DNA of 64,000 nucleotides from an uncultured Alphaproteobacteria bacterium (GTDB lineage: Bacteria; Pseudomonadota; Alphaproteobacteria; HIMB59; GCA-002718135): the NCBI GenBank assembly GCA_902621305.1, contig CACNLM010000002.1, forward strand, positions 681 through 64,680, written 5' to 3'. Positions 5,201-33,696 of the stretch are shown one piece after another. How positions within the stretch are numbered: position 1 is the stretch's first letter; each line of letters begins with the position of its first letter. Position numbers and translations under genes: made by a program. The notes under the pieces are model-generated. The model searched no databases, was not told the origin of the DNA, and saw nothing but the letters and a program-made list of their open reading frames with translations.

Positions 5201-6737
5201 CTAGAGGAGTGTCATCTCCCATCGATCCCGTTGCTTCTTTTTTTTCTGCAATCATTGGATGAAGTATTAATTCGATGTCTTCCACTGACCAAGCAAAGCA
5301 TGCCATTCTTTTTCGTAGATCTCCAGAGTCTAAATCTCTAAATTCCTCATCAACAGATTGAACAAGTTTATCAATATACGTAATTTTTTTAGTCCAATCA
5401 CCAAATGGTTTAGTTTCTGCCAAATACTTTTTTATTTCATGATCTTTAAAAAATTTTTTCTCTTTAAAGTTGACTGCTATTAATTGACCTGGTCCTACCC
5501 TACCTCTTTCTACTATTTCATTTTCTCTAATATCAACCATTCCAGTTTCAGAACCAGCAATAAGAAGATTTTTTGTTAGTGTATATCTTAAGGGTCTAAG
5601 ACCATTTCTATCCATTCCAGCAATAGCCCAATCACTGTAAGCACCACATATCGCTGCTGGACCATCCCATGGCTCCATTACAGCTCCACCATAAGCATAT
5701 AAATCTTTTATTTTTTTTGGAAAATCTCTTCTATGAGACCAAGCCTCTGGAATTGTTATGATTTTAGCCATAGGTAGAGAGCGATTAGCTTTGACTAGTA
5801 ATTCTATCGTTGAATCTAATGCAGCAGAGTCAGACGCTTTAGCATCAATTATGGGTTTTAAATCATCTACATTATTGCCAAAATTGTAATGTTCCATTCT
5901 TGGCTCATGAGCAGCCATCCAATTTTTATTACCTTTAAGTGTATTTATTTCACCATTATGCGCAATCACTCTAAAAGGCTGAGCTAAAGACCATGTAGGA
6001 AAAGTATTAGTTGAATAACGCTGGTGATAAACCGCATATCTAGAAATAAAGTTCTCATTTTGTATATCTGGATAAAAATTGGAAAGCTGTTCTGCTAAAA
6101 ACATACCTTTATAAACAATAGACTGACACGATAGTGAGCAAATATAAAAGTCAGAAATATTTTGATTTCTAATTTCTTTTTCTATTCTTTTTCTAATTAT
6201 ATAAAGTTTATTATCAAATTGCTTTTCATCTTCTAGTTCTTCATTACAAATTAGTATTTGTTCTATTTCAGGTCTTGTTGCTTTTGCTTTATCACCAATA
6301 ATGGATGAATTAATTGGAACGTGTCTCCAACCATAAATTTTCAAACCTTCTTTAATTATTTCAGATTCAACAATTGTACGAGCATTTTCTTGAGCTGCAA
6401 AATCTGTACGTGGTAAAAAAATCATGCCAACCCCGAAAGGGAAATCATTTGGAGTGTGACCAGTTCTTTCTATTTGTTGAGTAAAAAAATTCTTTGGTAT
6501 GGATAACTGTATTCCTGCACCATCACCTGTTTTACCATCAGCATCAACTGCTCCTCGGTGATACAAAACTCTTAAAGCTTGAACTCCTAACTCAACTATT
6601 TCTCTTGTCTCAGATCCATCTAAAGATGCTATTAATCCAACACCACATGATGAATGTTCATCTTGTTCATCATAAACATGATTTTCCTCTAAGAATTTTT
6701 TATCCTTTTTATACTTTTCAATAAAGTTATTAAGCAT
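2220..6737 (-). CDS. gltB: Glutamate synthase large subunit
   Basis: 1505 aa; N-terminal SCGVG (Ntn Cys), HQRYSTNTFP, KVAQGAKPGEGGQLPG, CIMVRQCHSNTCPVG [3Fe-4S] motif, GCEYMTGG. Confidence 0.98.
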   Translation of the reverse strand: MLNNFIEKYKKDKKFLEENHVYDEQDEHSSCGVGLIASLDGSETREIVELGVQALRVLYHRGAVDADGKTGDGAGIQLSIPKNFFTQQIERTGHTPNDFPFGVGMIFLPRTDFAAQENARTIVESEIIKEGLKIYGWRHVPINSSIIGDKAKATRPEIEQILICNEELEDEKQFDNKLYIIRKRIEKEIRNQNISDFYICSLSCQSIVYKGMFLAEQLSNFYPDIQNENFISRYAVYHQRYSTNTFPTWSLAQPFRVIAHNGEINTLKGNKNWMAAHEPRMEHYNFGNNVDDLKPIIDAKASDSAALDSTIELLVKANRSLPMAKIITIPEAWSHRRDFPKKIKDLYAYGGAVMEPWDGPAAICGAYSDWAIAGMDRNGLRPLRYTLTKNLLIAGSETGMVDIRENEIVERGRVGPGQLIAVNFKEKKFFKDHEIKKYLAETKPFGDWTKKITYIDKLVQSVDEEFRDLDSGDLRKRMACFAWSVEDIELILHPMIAEKKEATGSMGDDTPLAVLSNKYRGLHHFFRQNFSQVTNPPIDSLRERVVMSLRTRIGNLSNILDEDEDQCDHLQLNSPVLSIEQFKSMRKYMKDTVKIIDTTMDKTNPENNFETEISRINREAEHAVREGYVHIILSDKEMSKTRIALPMILVTSSVHHHLIKQNLRTFISLNVQSAECLDVQYFAVLIGVGATSVNAYMAQQAIAERHKKGLFKNLSYEECVERFINSINNGLLKTMSKMGISVINSYRGGCNFEAIGLSRNLMNKYFPSMSSKISGIGISGIERRSRLAHDNAYEESVITLPIGGNYRYRFGGEKHAFEARSIHMLQTAVTSNNYSLFKKYSSMIDDMDPINIRDLLDFKKNNDNNNSNTVEPSQEIRKRLVAPGISLGALSPEAHETLSVAMNRIGAKSDSGEGGEDPIRFKPKPNGDNASSKIKQIASGRFGVTAEYLNNCEEIEIKVAQGAKPGEGGQLPGGKVTELIAKLRHSTEGVTLISPPPHHDIYSIEDLAQLIYDLKQINPKAKVCVKLVAQSGIGTVAAGVAKAKADTILISGHNGGTGASPQTSIKYAGLPWELGLSEVHQVLSLNNLRDKVVLRTDGGLKTGKDIVIAAMLGAEEYGIGTASLVAMGCIMVRQCHSNTCPVGVCSQDEKLREKFTGTPEKVINLFSFIADEVREILGSLGFSSLDDVVGRSDLLYQVSRGSSDLDDLDLNPIIQTIDSSVGEFDIKKNTINKVSDSLDIKIIEDAKSFFETDQKIELNYNIKNTDRAIGTRLASEITTTKGMSFLPEDFFTVNFHGSAGQSFGAWSVQGTTLRVYGDANDYVAKGLSGGKIVIQPSSSSQLKTNKNVIIGNTVLYGATRGKLFAAGTAGDRFAVRNSGAHAVIEGCGDNGCEYMTGGSAVILGEVGNNFGAGMTGGMAFVYDKEGTLPLRINLEDIFYQQQMTGYWEKILYQKIEEHIKETNSRYAKNLLENWDNEKLLFWQILPKEMINKFDQPVLIQEEKSA

Positions 6738-29613: not shown

Positions 29614-29660
29614 TGAGCAAATGTTGTATTGTCCCTTTTCGGCGGCACTACATATTGTGT
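29614..29660 (+). promoter_or_regulatory. Tandem NrdR boxes upstream of nrdA
   Basis: Strong box GCACTACATATTGTGT (29645-29660) fits acaCwAtATaTwGtg; degenerate box TGAGCAAATGTTGTAT starts 31 bp upstream (29614-29629), the typical tandem spacing. Confidence 0.75.
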
Positions 29661-29698: not shown

Positions 29699-32452
29699 AT
29701 GGCAGACAATCTACAGGTATCAGTAAAAATCTCAGAAGAAAAAAGTGTAAATATTTTAACATTAAGTGTCGTGCGTCGTGACGGAGCTATTACTCCTTTC
29801 AAATCTGATAAAATTTCAAACGCTATAAAAAAAGCATTCTTGGCACAAACAAAAATTAGAAATGATAAAAATAAGGAAAAAGAACAACAAGATGGAATTC
29901 ATAAAACTGTTGAAGCTTTAACGCATAAAGTTGTCTCGGCTCTAACAAGAAGGATTGCTGACGGTGATATGATTCACATTGAGGATATACAAGATCAAGT
30001 GGAGTTAGCACTTATGAGAGATGAGCATCATAAAGTTGCTAGAGCGTATGTTTTGTATAGAGAACAAAGAGCGGCTTCAAGATATCACACTAAAAAACTA
30101 AAAGAACAAGTTGGAGAAAAAGCTTCTTCAATGATGGTAACTAAAAGAGATGGAAGTAAAGAGCCAATTTCACTGGATAAAATAACTAATAGAGTCTCTG
30201 TTCTATCTACTGGCTTAAACATTGATCCAATTGTCGTTGTTCAAAAAGCCGTTCCAGGCTTGTATAGTGATATTAGTTCCGTTGAAATTGATACTTATCT
30301 TGCTGAAACTGCTGCCGCTTTAACAGTTGAGCATCCTGATTATTCTTATCTTGCAGCAAGAATAAAAGTAAACTCACTTCATAAAGAAACTCCGGGTTTC
30401 ATCATAGCAACAAAAAATTTATACGATGATGGATTGTTAAGAGAAGATTATTACAAAAAGGTCATGGAGAATGCAGATTTAATTGAGTCAGTAATTGACT
30501 ATGACAAAGATTATACTTTTGATTATTTTGCTCTTACAACTCTAATAAGAGCATATTTATTAAAGTTCGATAATAAAACAATTGAAAGACCTCAAGACCT
30601 TTGGATGAGAGTAACTCTAACAGTTACCGGTAATGAGTTTAATTTAGATAAAATAAAAGAAACTTATAAAAGCTTATCAACCGGTATGTATACACATGCT
30701 ACTCCAACATTGTTTAATAGTGGATTAAAAATGCAGCAATTATCTTCATGCTTTTTAATAGGAATGGAAGATGACTCCATTGAAGGTATTTTTAATACTA
30801 TAAAAGATTGTGCCCTAATTTCTAAAACAGCTGGTGGTATTGGCATGCATGCTCATAATATTAGAGCTAGTGGAAGTAGAATAAAATCAACAAACGGCAA
30901 ATCTAATGGCCTTATTCCATTTTTGAAAATATTTAATGAGACTGCTAAATCAGTTGATCAAGGTGGCGGTAAAAGGAAAGGTTCTTTTGCAGTTTACTTA
31001 GAACCTTGGCATGCTGACGTTGAGAAATTTCTAGAACTTAGAAAAAATACAGGTGCCGAAGAATTTAGAGCAAGAGATTTGTTTTACGCTTTATGGATAC
31101 CAGATTTATTCATGAAGAGAGTAGAAAATGATGAAGAGTGGACACTTATGAGTGAGCATGAATGTCCAGGTCTTTCAGATGTTTATGGTGACGAGTTTGA
31201 AAAACTTTATACAAAGTATGAAAATGAAATGAAGCATTTAGAAAAAATTAAAGCAAGAGATTTAATGTCTAAAATTATAGAAGCACAAATAGAAACAGGA
31301 CAACCTTATATGCTTTATAAAGACTCAATTAATAATAAGTCAAATCAAAAAAATATTGGTGTCATTAAATCTTCAAACCTTTGTGCAGAAATAGTAGAAT
31401 ATTCTGATAAGAACGAGACATCTGTATGTAACTTAGCTTCCATAGCGTTGCCAAAATTTGTAAAAAAATCAAATAAAAAATTAATATATGACTATGACGC
31501 CCTATACGAAACTGCAAAATTGGCTACAAAAAACTTAGATGAAGTAATTGATATTAATTTCTATCCAACTGATAAAACGGAAAGGTCTAATAATAAACAT
31601 AGGCCAATAGGTTTAGGAATACAGGGACTTGCAGATGTCTACTTTAAGATGGGAATAGCCTATGAATCTGAAGAAGCTAAAGAAATAAATAAATTAATTT
31701 TTGAGACAATTTATTTTGGAGCTTTAGAAGCTTCATGTGAGTTAGCAAAAGAAAAAGGAGCCTACGAAACATTTAATAATTCACCTATTTCGGAAGGTAA
31801 GTTTCAATTTGATCTGTGGAATGTTAATCCTTCTTCAAAGTGGGATTGGGATAAGCTTAGAACTAAAATTAAGAAGCACGGCGTAAGAAACTCTTTAACC
31901 ACAGCTTGCATGCCAACTGCGTCAACAGGTATTATATTAGGTAATACTGAAACATTCCAAATACAAACCTCTAATATATATAAAAGACAAACACTCTCAG
32001 GTGAATTCCTACTCGTAAATAGATATTTAGTGAATGAACTTTCTCAAAGAGGGTTGTGGAATAAAGAAATGAGAGACAAAATAATTTTAGAAAATGGATC
32101 GGTTGAAAACATAAATGAAATTCCAACTGAATTAAAAGAAGTTTATAAAACAGTTTGGGAAGTATCACAAAAAACTGTAATTGATATGTCAGCAGATAGA
32201 GCACCATTTATTGATCAAACTCAATCTATGAATCTTTGGCTTTCAACACCTACATTTGGAAAAGTTAATTCAATGCATATGTATGCATGGAAAAAAGGTC
32301 TTAAAACAGGAATGTATTATCTAAGAAGTAGATCAGCTGTTGATGCTGTAAAAGTTACAGTTTCATCAGAAAAAGCAGCTAAAGATGCTTATTTAAATAC
32401 TACTATCAATCAAAACAATGAACCAGAAGATTGCGAAACTTGTAGTGCATAA
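29699..32452 (+). CDS. nrdA: Class I ribonucleoside-diphosphate reductase alpha subunit with two N-terminal ATP-cones
   Basis: ATPTLFNSG, SSCFL, SSNLCAEI, VCNLAS, TGMYYLRS, C-terminal CETCSA; cones begin at VVRRDG and VTKRDG. Confidence 0.97.
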   Translation: MADNLQVSVKISEEKSVNILTLSVVRRDGAITPFKSDKISNAIKKAFLAQTKIRNDKNKEKEQQDGIHKTVEALTHKVVSALTRRIADGDMIHIEDIQDQVELALMRDEHHKVARAYVLYREQRAASRYHTKKLKEQVGEKASSMMVTKRDGSKEPISLDKITNRVSVLSTGLNIDPIVVVQKAVPGLYSDISSVEIDTYLAETAAALTVEHPDYSYLAARIKVNSLHKETPGFIIATKNLYDDGLLREDYYKKVMENADLIESVIDYDKDYTFDYFALTTLIRAYLLKFDNKTIERPQDLWMRVTLTVTGNEFNLDKIKETYKSLSTGMYTHATPTLFNSGLKMQQLSSCFLIGMEDDSIEGIFNTIKDCALISKTAGGIGMHAHNIRASGSRIKSTNGKSNGLIPFLKIFNETAKSVDQGGGKRKGSFAVYLEPWHADVEKFLELRKNTGAEEFRARDLFYALWIPDLFMKRVENDEEWTLMSEHECPGLSDVYGDEFEKLYTKYENEMKHLEKIKARDLMSKIIEAQIETGQPYMLYKDSINNKSNQKNIGVIKSSNLCAEIVEYSDKNETSVCNLASIALPKFVKKSNKKLIYDYDALYETAKLATKNLDEVIDINFYPTDKTERSNNKHRPIGLGIQGLADVYFKMGIAYESEEAKEINKLIFETIYFGALEASCELAKEKGAYETFNNSPISEGKFQFDLWNVNPSSKWDWDKLRTKIKKHGVRNSLTTACMPTASTGIILGNTETFQIQTSNIYKRQTLSGEFLLVNRYLVNELSQRGLWNKEMRDKIILENGSVENINEIPTELKEVYKTVWEVSQKTVIDMSADRAPFIDQTQSMNLWLSTPTFGKVNSMHMYAWKKGLKTGMYYLRSRSAVDAVKVTVSSEKAAKDAYLNTTINQNNEPEDCETCSA

Positions 32453-32467
32453 AAAAGGAGTAATAGA

Positions 32468-33457
32468 ATGATATCAAAAGGTGTTAAATCAATATTTCCA
32501 ATAAAAAACCAAGAAATTTGGGATAGATATAAACAACATATTCAAGCTTTTTGGACAACAGAAGAAGTATCATTACAAGACGATTTAAGAGATCTTGAAA
32601 CCTTAAATGATGGTGAAAAGCACTTTATAAAACATGTACTTGCTTATTTTGCTAACTCTGAGGCAATGATTAATGAAAACTTAGCAAGCAGATTCTACAA
32701 AGAAATACTAATACCTGAAGCAAGATGCTTTATCTCAATGCAGATGTTGAATGAATCAATTCATGCTGAAATGTACGGACTTCAAATAGAAGCTTATGTA
32801 AAAGATGCGAAAGAAAAAGATATGCTTTTTGATGCAATTCAAAATGTACCATGCATTAACCATAAAGCACAATGGGTATCAAAATGGCTTAATGGTAGTC
32901 AAAATCTCCTAACCAGATTAATAGGTTTTGGATTAGTTGAAGGTTTGTTTTTTGCAGGCTCTTTCTGTGCAATATATTATTTTAGAAAAAGAGGACTATT
33001 ACCAGGTTTAGCCTTATCTAACGATTGGATTGCAAGAGACGAAGGAATGCACTTTAGCTTCTCATCCTTAATGTTTAGGACTTTAAGAGACAAGTTTAAT
33101 AATAAAACATTAACTGATGCAGATATTAGTGATTTATCTTTGATTCCTTCAGACGTGCCACAATCACAGTTTGAAGAAATTGTTAGAGAAGCAGTAGCTT
33201 TTGAAAAAGAATTTGTAAAAGACGCACTGCCAGTAGATTTAATTGGTATGAACGCTGATTTAATGTGTCAATATATAGAAGCTGTCGCTGACAGAATTGC
33301 TGATCTATTTGAATTTGACAGAGTATTTAAAACAGAGAATCCTTTTGATTTTATGAGAGCTTTGGATGTTCAAAACGTTACAAACTTTTTTGAAAAAAGA
33401 GTATCGGAGTATCAAAGACCTACAGATAGAGCTTTAAGTTTTGATGAAGCATTTTAA
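32468..33457 (+). CDS. nrdB: Class I ribonucleoside-diphosphate reductase beta subunit
   Basis: FWTTEE, NESIHAEMY, VEGLFFAGSF, RDEGMH, NFFEKRVSEY; AGGAG RBS upstream. Confidence 0.96.
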   Translation: MISKGVKSIFPIKNQEIWDRYKQHIQAFWTTEEVSLQDDLRDLETLNDGEKHFIKHVLAYFANSEAMINENLASRFYKEILIPEARCFISMQMLNESIHAEMYGLQIEAYVKDAKEKDMLFDAIQNVPCINHKAQWVSKWLNGSQNLLTRLIGFGLVEGLFFAGSFCAIYYFRKRGLLPGLALSNDWIARDEGMHFSFSSLMFRTLRDKFNNKTLTDADISDLSLIPSDVPQSQFEEIVREAVAFEKEFVKDALPVDLIGMNADLMCQYIEAVADRIADLFEFDRVFKTENPFDFMRALDVQNVTNFFEKRVSEYQRPTDRALSFDEAF

Positions 33458-33696
33458 TGGAAGCAGAGATATACTCTAAAACTAATTGTGGATATTGTGA
33501 TAGAGCTAAACTACGTTTAGCTAAATATAATCCCAAGATTTATATGCTTGGTACAGACTATACGAGAGAAGATTTTTTTGAAAAATTTCCGAACGCTAAA
33601 ACCTTTCCTCAAATAATTTTAAATGGTGATAAAATTGGAGGGTATCATGAACTTGAAAAATGGTTTGAAATGAATACCTTTGATGAAGAATTCTAA
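33457..33696 (+). CDS. Glutaredoxin (likely RNR electron donor)
   Basis: CGYC active site, TFPQI, IGGY; TAATG overlap with nrdB. Confidence 0.92.
   Translation: MEAEIYSKTNCGYCDRAKLRLAKYNPKIYMLGTDYTREDFFEKFPNAKTFPQIILNGDKIGGYHELEKWFEMNTFDEEF

Follow-up and report, generated by a model that had tools for sequence, protein, structure and literature searches.

The nrdA-nrdB-glutaredoxin unit and its genome

Within the window, i.e., the whole 64,000-nucleotide stretch of DNA that was analysed, nrdA, nrdB and a glutaredoxin gene form a tight three-gene unit on the + strand. The nrdA gene (29699-32452, +) codes for a eukaryote-type catalytic alpha subunit of 917 aa, which contains the Pfam barrel domain (E 8e-216) and, as delimited by Pfam, two ATP-cone stretches ahead of a eukaryote-type body; among solved chains, human and yeast R1 come nearest to it (E 1e-280). 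It is followed by nrdB (32468-33457, +), an open reading frame for the 329-aa radical-generating beta subunit of a class I RNR, which matches the Pfam family Ribonuc_red_sm (PF00268) with E 9e-89 and 298 bits at a cut-off of 33.6 and which is called Glu-type below after the residue at its first metal ligand. The unit is closed by the glutaredoxin gene (33457-33696, +; 79 aa; Pfam Glutaredoxin, E 2e-07), whose ATG and the nrdB stop codon overlap by one base, and a Grx or Trx gene also stands after nrdB in Vibrio and Ichthyobacteriaceae. The NrdA proteins of Vibrio and Ichthyobacteriaceae members of the same clade have one cone and are 752 and 763 aa long, respectively; the NrdA open frames in HIMB59- and Hyphomicrobiales-labelled MAGs measure 924 and 926 aa.

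The palindrome CACTACATATTGTG (29646-29659, +), located 40 nt upstream of nrdA, resembles the NrdR-box consensus and is a candidate NrdR site; the source genome contains an NrdR gene (TIGR00244, 169.6 bits, G000:C7:38011-38445). In the Vibrio upstream regions, too, a conserved element, ACACAAGATATAG, is located directly ahead of the start codon. A search for riboswitches and other Rfam elements around the operon returned none at E <= 0.1.

The source DNA is low-GC (~28% G+C) and comes from a SAR11-type alphaproteobacterium; the sources of close homologues of the nrdB product label them as Pelagibacteraceae or Alphaproteobacteria. In the source genome (G000; 1.45 Mb, 87% complete) nrdB is the only match to PF00268 and nrdA the only match to PF02867, which makes the pair the only detectable RNR of the organism. 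The Glu-type enzyme is the sole RNR in SAR11 and in the HIMB59-, Hyphomicrobiales- and Ichthyobacteriaceae-labelled MAGs. An earlier note on this DNA had pointed out that the operon lacks nrdI, and this absence extends to the entire 87%-complete genome, with 0 matches to PF07972. The same profile gives 0 matches in V. harveyi and in the Ichthyobacteriaceae, Hyphomicrobiales- and HIMB59-labelled MAGs, all of which carry the Glu-type enzyme, and also in G107, a genome that is without it.

Metal ligands, radical path and fold of the beta subunit

The nrdB product aligns to mouse R2 (1h0n) by phmmer with E 4.9e-91, without gaps at ligand 1: FANSEAMINENL falls on FAASDGIVNENL of the mouse protein, so that E65 (GAG, 32660-32662, +) comes to stand on the Asp that serves as ligand 1 in the Asp-type kin. 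The motif NESIHAEMY (32750-32776, +) aligns on MENIHSEMY of mouse R2 and provides the second-sphere residue N95, ligands 2 and 3, E96 (32753-32755, +) and H99 (32762-32764, +), and the radical-site tyrosine Y103 (32774-32776, +). The stretch from ligand 4 to ligand 6 (32939-33052, +) comprises E158 (32939-32941, +), the pair D191-E192 with E192 as ligand 5 (33041-33043, +), and H195 (33050-33052, +); the residues A163, D186, F196, S197 and S199, which are specific to the clade described below, surround these three ligands. Since all of these codons were read directly, the set of six ligands and the tyrosine listed in the earlier note can be taken as established, and its placement of a glutamate at the first ligand is upheld by the ungapped alignment to the mouse enzyme. 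The residues of the radical-transfer path, W29, Y103 and Y315, are all kept. The last of them, the C-terminal relay tyrosine (33410-33412, +; codon read), belongs to the motif SEYQR, which aligns with GEYQR of mouse R2, and is followed by an acidic tail, ...SFDEAF, which has pLDDT <50 in the AlphaFold2 (AF2) model, as expected for an alpha-binding peptide.

The AF2 model of the nrdB product, built on a 57-row alignment, has a pLDDT of 89.2 and only its C-terminal tail is disordered. Helix B is unbroken in the model over residues 48-79, as in class Ia. In fold, it matches human RRM2, p53R2 and mouse R2 best (TM 0.91, rmsd 1.8 A), and Chlamydia R2c next (TM 0.77, 23% identity). The proposal that the protein is built on a eukaryote-type scaffold is supported in three ways, by the alignment to mouse R2, by the likeness of NrdA to human and yeast R1 and by the fold match to RRM2.

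The helix that carries H195 is followed by a 19-residue insertion, KFNNKTLTDADISDLSLIP (residues 209-227; 33092-33148, +). It had been noticed earlier and is real: human R2 and the Vibrio protein P0272 have a gap opposite these residues, which are modelled by AF2 at pLDDT 96-98. The Ichthyobacterium protein P0276 has a stretch of equal length at this place, and the Asp-type protein P0133 has one of insertion length at the same site. We considered and rejected the insertion as a part of the Glu trait because the Vibrio copies have the glutamate without the insertion.

Distribution and origin of the glutamate

A HMMER search of 1.84 billion representatives of 50%-identity clusters gave 7628 matches. 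Among the best 150 of these 7628 representatives the ligand-1 column holds Asp in 147, a gap in one, which is a C-terminal fragment, and Glu in two, one of them a fragment of the same protein and the other a singleton, P0244. Among the close database homologues FANSEAMINENL is identical in 121 of 121. In the order to which the source organism belongs, 108 of 119 sampled genomes carry a match, 107 of these 108 with a copy at >=84% identity (three copies are cut by contig ends), and FANSEAMINENL is present in 50 of the 51 loci read; these 50 represent 48 genomes, with three entries for G000. The ligand-1 codon in the Glu loci of the order is GAG in 28 cases and GAA in 22. Glu codons are one transversion away from Asp codons, and the strict retention of Glu together with synonymous variation of its codon implies selection for the glutamate itself. 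The homologue and locus counts and the synonymous codons also dispose of chance or a sequencing error as the origin of the glutamate.

The one exception in the order is the genome G107, where a different RNR occupies the syntenic place. At this locus (L045, G107:C6, 950-3936) the same neighbours, a response regulator gene and polA, enclose genes for an alpha subunit of 650 aa, probably, from its length, without an ATP cone, and for a beta subunit of 347 aa, which among solved structures comes nearest to 9DWS, a beta subunit from Francisella hispaniensis (E 2e-95), with Asp at ligand 1; it looks as if the operon was replaced in place in this member of the same family. G107 also contains an Asp-type eukaryote-like NrdB at 48% identity (L044, G107:C18, 2950-3933; 24.7% G+C). 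An ORF with a thymidine kinase-like N-terminus is found near it, with no alpha subunit nearby, and this stretch could come from a virus or from contamination, which is rated at 3% for this genome.

Outside the order, a search with P0244 found ten proteins with the Glu/Asn/Tyr combination among 120 rows counted, P0244 included, and these come from Vibrio harveyi, V. tapetis, Photobacterium damselae and Ichthyobacterium seriolicida, among others. The Vibrio and Ichthyobacterium proteins that were compared are 61% identical to the nrdB product. In a scan of one genome per species, 80 of 80 loci had Glu at ligand 1 and Asn before ligand 2, a count that is biased to the trait because two of the search patterns contained the clade's own motifs. 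Sixteen of the 80 loci belong to Vibrionaceae (Vibrio and Photobacterium) and code for proteins of 310 aa without the insertion, the one of V. harveyi being located on chromosome 2; one belongs to an Ichthyobacteriaceae MAG (328 aa, with an insertion); and the loci of alphaproteobacterial MAGs, which bear the labels Hyphomicrobiales, OCS116, HIMB59 and Pelagibacteraceae, code for proteins of 329 aa, also with an insertion. A trait confined to SAR11 is ruled out by the Vibrionaceae, Ichthyobacteriaceae and other alphaproteobacterial MAG members, and a Glu/Tyr pairing peculiar to the source organism is ruled out by the wider clade. Whether the change from Asp to Glu is clade-wide had been set beforehand as a check, and the answer is that the glutamate is found in the close homologues, in the loci of the order and in those of the wider clade alike. 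In the tree described below, the NrdB of a HIMB59-labelled MAG (L085, 3211-4197) falls inside the Pelagibacteraceae rows, beside Pelagibacteraceae CM1 (99), a placement that may be due to gene transfer, labelling or binning. Viral copies of the Glu type were not encountered in a sample of 80 IMG/VR relatives, all at <=50% identity: Asp is present in 73 of the 73 with a readable motif, and the other 7 gave no motif with the pattern used.

The history of the substitution was examined in an IQ-TREE tree of 61 hand-picked rows, 18 of Glu type and 43 of Asp type, obtained by a quick search. All Glu rows lie on one side of a branch with an SH-aLRT value of 87, which becomes 91 without the long-branched P0244; the tree needs one D-to-E change, and the sister row is of Asp type (98). 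Such a topology agrees with one Asp-to-Glu change and a later transfer between phyla. It also supports the independent origin of the glutamate that the earlier note had proposed, as a single change inside an Asp-type NrdBe-like group, separate from classes Ic and Id. The substitution did not remain isolated: when 17 Glu-clade rows are compared with 43 Asp-type rows, clade substitutions are seen to flank every ligand. Thus, the Glu clade has M67 and I68 where the Asp-type rows have I and V, N95 in 17 of 17 rows as against I or M in 36 of 43, Q106 against L, A163 against S in 39 of 43, and S199 against A; G155, D186, F196 and S197 are further residues that differ from the Asp-type kin.

Relation to the described classes

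Classes Ia and Ib are described as having Asp at ligand 1 together with the radical Tyr, class Ic as having Glu with Phe, and class Id as having Glu with Tyr (PMC6754362, PMC8463856, PMC6370689); in the account of PMC8463856 the Tyr/Glu pairing was what first singled out class Id. When the nrdB product is compared with these classes, E65 takes the place of the Asp of class Ia, with the tyrosine present. Class Ib does not apply, given that there is no NrdI and that the alpha subunit has ATP cones. The glutamate of class Ic is present, but Y103 is kept instead of Phe or Leu, and membership in class Ic is rejected for this reason. The pairing of class Id is found in E65 and Y103. The class is further characterized by a Trp at +7 from the Glu in all NrdBi and, in the characterised subgroup, by a Lys at +4, as reported in PMC6754362, whereas the nrdB product has L72 and N69 at these places; the earlier note had remarked on the missing Lys, to which the missing Trp can now be added. 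The Thr by which, as described in PMC8463856, the F. johnsoniae enzyme keeps its Tyr at a distance from the metal corresponds in position to I188, which is invariant across the Asp and Glu types, and class Id alphas are without ATP cones according to the same source, whereas NrdA has two cone stretches. No class Id chain matches the nrdB product at E <= 1e-3, in a search that finds these chains from another beta subunit. The absent Lys and Trp, the two-cone alpha subunit and the lack of a chain match lead us to reject membership in class Id as well. All six ligands are kept and NrdI is absent, which separates the protein from class Ie. In that class three carboxylate ligands are lost and a DOPA radical is formed in an NrdI-dependent manner. 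With the defining features of classes Ia to Ie compared one by one, the statement of the earlier note that the protein fits no described class cleanly finds support.

By its relatives the protein belongs to NrdBe, a group name that is given here by likeness, as opposed to RNRdb's own profiles: eukaryotic R2 is closest, and the partner NrdA is eukaryote-like. The pattern given for NrdBe in Table 4 of PMC6370689 is D-E-H-E-E-H with M, I or V before ligand 2, and the nrdB pattern, E-E-H-E-E-H with N95, departs from it. A literature search in the texts of papers found no description of a Glu/Tyr NrdBe clade or of its metal. Figure 9 of PMC8463856 colours the nodes of a sequence network by ligand motif and may already show Glu/Tyr NrdBe nodes, and a 2026 virioplankton preprint deals, in its portion considered here, with viral RNR classes and not with the Glu-type NrdBe clade.

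Fur-box-like sites in Vibrionaceae

In V. harveyi, two NrdB genes and two alpha barrels make up a canonical pair, located on chromosome 1, and the Glu-type pair, located on chromosome 2. The region ahead of the Glu-type nrdA contains TGTAATGATAACCATTATC, a putative Fur site that agrees with the E. coli Fur-box consensus at 16 of 19 positions. It is the only match at <=3 mismatches in the 16.9-kb locus, where 0.01 would be expected, and the best Fur-box score upstream of the canonical nrdA of V. harveyi is 11/19. A Fur-box-like site with 14-16 of 19 matches is found ~80 nt before the nrdA start codon in 15 of 15 Vibrionaceae loci with upstream DNA, which are kin and not independent cases; as to background, 5 of 486 other 450-nt windows of the same loci reach 15/19. 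The invariant columns of an otherwise diverged intergenic alignment cluster on the Fur-like site and on the bases just 3' of it. A simple scan found no sigma-70 promoter over the Vibrio Fur-like site, and an overlap with the promoter is not claimed. Upstream of the SAR11 and Ichthyobacteriaceae operons no Fur-like site was found, the best score there, 13/19, being at background level.

Two further sets of sites were seen in these loci. V. tapetis and a Vibrio MAG have 18/19 Fur-box-like sites just downstream of the glutaredoxin gene (L065, 9306-9324; L068, 9338-9356), and the next gene after them is presumably also iron-regulated. Four Vibrio loci (L058-L061, ~5277-5321) have a second Fur-box-like site, with a score of 16/19, located 294-369 nt upstream of nrdA and nearer to a divergent upstream gene.

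In E. coli the Mn-dependent NrdEF is repressed by Fur and serves as the iron-starvation enzyme. By analogy, the sites upstream of nrdA suggest that the Glu-type enzyme of Vibrionaceae is the one used when iron is scarce.

The metal of the Glu-type enzyme

Taken together, the sequence comparisons lead us to give about an even chance (roughly 0.5) to a Mn-containing cofactor in the Glu-type beta subunit. The metal is Mn/Fe in class Ic and Mn2 in class Id, and every natural beta subunit with Glu at ligand 1 that is covered as characterised in the texts of PMC8463856 and PMC6370689 uses Mn. This association of the glutamate with Mn is one reason for the proposal; the others are that the glutamate was fixed under selection, with a single origin and with second-shell residues changed in concert, that the Fur-box-like sites of Vibrionaceae mirror the regulation of the E. 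coli Mn enzyme, and that low-iron marine lineages have no RNR other than the Glu-type enzyme. The beta subunit is the working radical-generating subunit of the only RNR of the source organism, paired with the two-cone eukaryote-type NrdA and with the co-translated glutaredoxin. It represents a single-origin branch of NrdBe in which ligand 1 changed from Asp to Glu along with the appearance of M67, I68, N95, Q106, A163 and S199, the tyrosine and the full radical-transfer path having been kept while the site was remodelled. The remodelled site would bind Mn in at least site 1, as Mn/Fe or as Mn2, and would probably be activated by an oxidant without NrdI; Y103 may carry the radical or relay it, and the need for iron would be lower than that of a diferric class Ia enzyme.

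Alternatively, the chemistry may be that of an ordinary class Ia enzyme, a reading to which we assign a substantial probability, if somewhat short of one half. Here, a diferric cluster would oxidise Y103 to a stable tyrosyl radical, and the glutamate and its second-shell partners would do no more than adjust the affinity for the metal, the kinetics of assembly or the lifetime of the radical, for instance through tighter iron binding at low iron. The scaffold, the alpha subunit and the reductant partner are all of the eukaryotic class Ia type, the change from Asp to Glu is conservative, the intact tyrosine and relay residues are what a diferric-tyrosyl enzyme needs, and helix B is continuous in the model, as in class Ia. 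The D84E variant of E. coli R2 is reported to build a diiron site all the same and to retain reactivity with O2, which weakens the case for Mn. So does the lack of a recognisable Mn importer, since neither Nramp nor a binding protein of the ZnuA/SitA family was found in the 87%-complete source genome. A Fur site would be equally compatible with an iron enzyme of higher metal affinity that is switched on when iron falls; on the other hand, swapping one iron enzyme for another under Fur control would save little iron. The use of Mn by the characterised Glu enzymes argues against the diferric alternative as well, and with Asp in 147 of the best 150 clusters a neutral or mild change would not be expected to become fixed together with about ten flanking substitutions. 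With no such importer found, no route of Mn or Zn uptake is obvious in the source genome; a Fur-family gene is present.

A special case of Mn use would be a convergent enzyme of the strict class Id kind, in which Mn2(IV/III) generated with scavenged superoxide is itself the oxidant and Y103 is not oxidised. The Tyr/Glu pairing and the absence of NrdI speak for it. Nevertheless, we regard it as highly improbable considering the residues at +4 and +7, the invariant I188 in place of the Thr, the ATP cones of the alpha subunit, the failure of any class Id chain to match and the unbroken helix B of the model; moreover, a Mn2 cofactor would need a source of superoxide, and both NrdI and the class Id Lys are absent. 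Returning to the proposal of a Mn-containing site, it may be extended, quite tentatively, to a further independent cofactor type represented by the Glu-type NrdBe, with a site for Mn/Fe or Mn2 in a eukaryote-type scaffold, no NrdI and a retained tyrosine, which SAR11 would use as its sole RNR, and Vibrio and Photobacterium as theirs for iron starvation.

The investigation of this clade is of interest whichever metal it uses. The RNR cofactor subclasses Ia to Ie were each first recognised from a change in the Asp/Tyr pair, and the Glu-type clade combines the scaffold of the animal enzyme with a pairing that is otherwise known from class Id alone. SAR11 are the most abundant heterotrophic bacteria of the ocean. 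If Mn is used, SAR11 and several other oligotrophic marine lineages would rely on it for DNA synthesis instead of, or besides, Fe, which would bear on cellular iron quotas in iron-limited oceans, and Vibrio would have a new kind of iron-starvation RNR. If the cofactor is diferric, the clade would be a natural test of Glu at ligand 1 in the best-studied radical enzyme. Either outcome could be studied with the Vibrio copies, whose hosts can be cultured and are genetically tractable.

Comparison with known systems

The closest known relatives of the Glu-type beta subunit are the eukaryotic class Ia R2 proteins (mouse 1H0N/1XSM, human RRM2 3OLJ and p53R2 3HF1), to which it corresponds in fold, with 45% of the structurally aligned residues identical; it also agrees with them in five ligands out of six, in the Tyr, the Trp and the C-terminal Tyr, and in having an acidic tail. 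It differs from them in the Glu at ligand 1, in N95 in place of Met, Ile or Val, in Q106, A163 and S199, and in the 19-residue insertion, and its alpha subunit differs from eukaryotic R1 in an extra ATP cone. With class Id NrdBi (F. johnsoniae 6CWO/6CWP, L. blandensis 6SF4/5OLK and F. ignava) it has in common the all-Glu/His ligand set, the tyrosine and the absence of NrdI; however, it belongs to another lineage, is without the Lys at +4, the Trp at +7 and the Thr partner, and works with an alpha subunit that has ATP cones.

Class Ic R2c (Chlamydia trachomatis 1SYY, 4D8F and 4M1I) is similar in having Glu at ligand 1 and, as predicted here for the Glu-type enzyme, in self-assembly with O2 without an activase. 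The class Ic alpha subunit has more than one ATP cone, a likeness to the two-cone NrdA. The match of Chlamydia R2c to the nrdB product has only E 9e-30 and 23% identity, and the two proteins are distinguished by Tyr in place of Phe and by the residue before ligand 2, which is Asn here and Glu in class Ic, as described in PMC6370689.

With respect to its role, the Vibrionaceae Glu-type enzyme can be likened to the class Ib NrdHIEF of E. coli, being a second aerobic RNR that accompanies a canonical NrdAB and has a Fur-box-like site. The two are of unrelated subclasses, and the Glu-type system has no NrdI, a Grx instead of NrdH and an alpha subunit with an ATP cone; in SAR11, furthermore, it is the only RNR and is without a Fur-like site. 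Finally, the E. coli R2 D84E variant reproduces the Asp-to-Glu change at ligand 1 with the tyrosine present. That variant was made in the laboratory, by a single mutation in the NrdBg scaffold, whereas the glutamate of the Glu-type clade is natural and ancient and is accompanied by second-shell changes.
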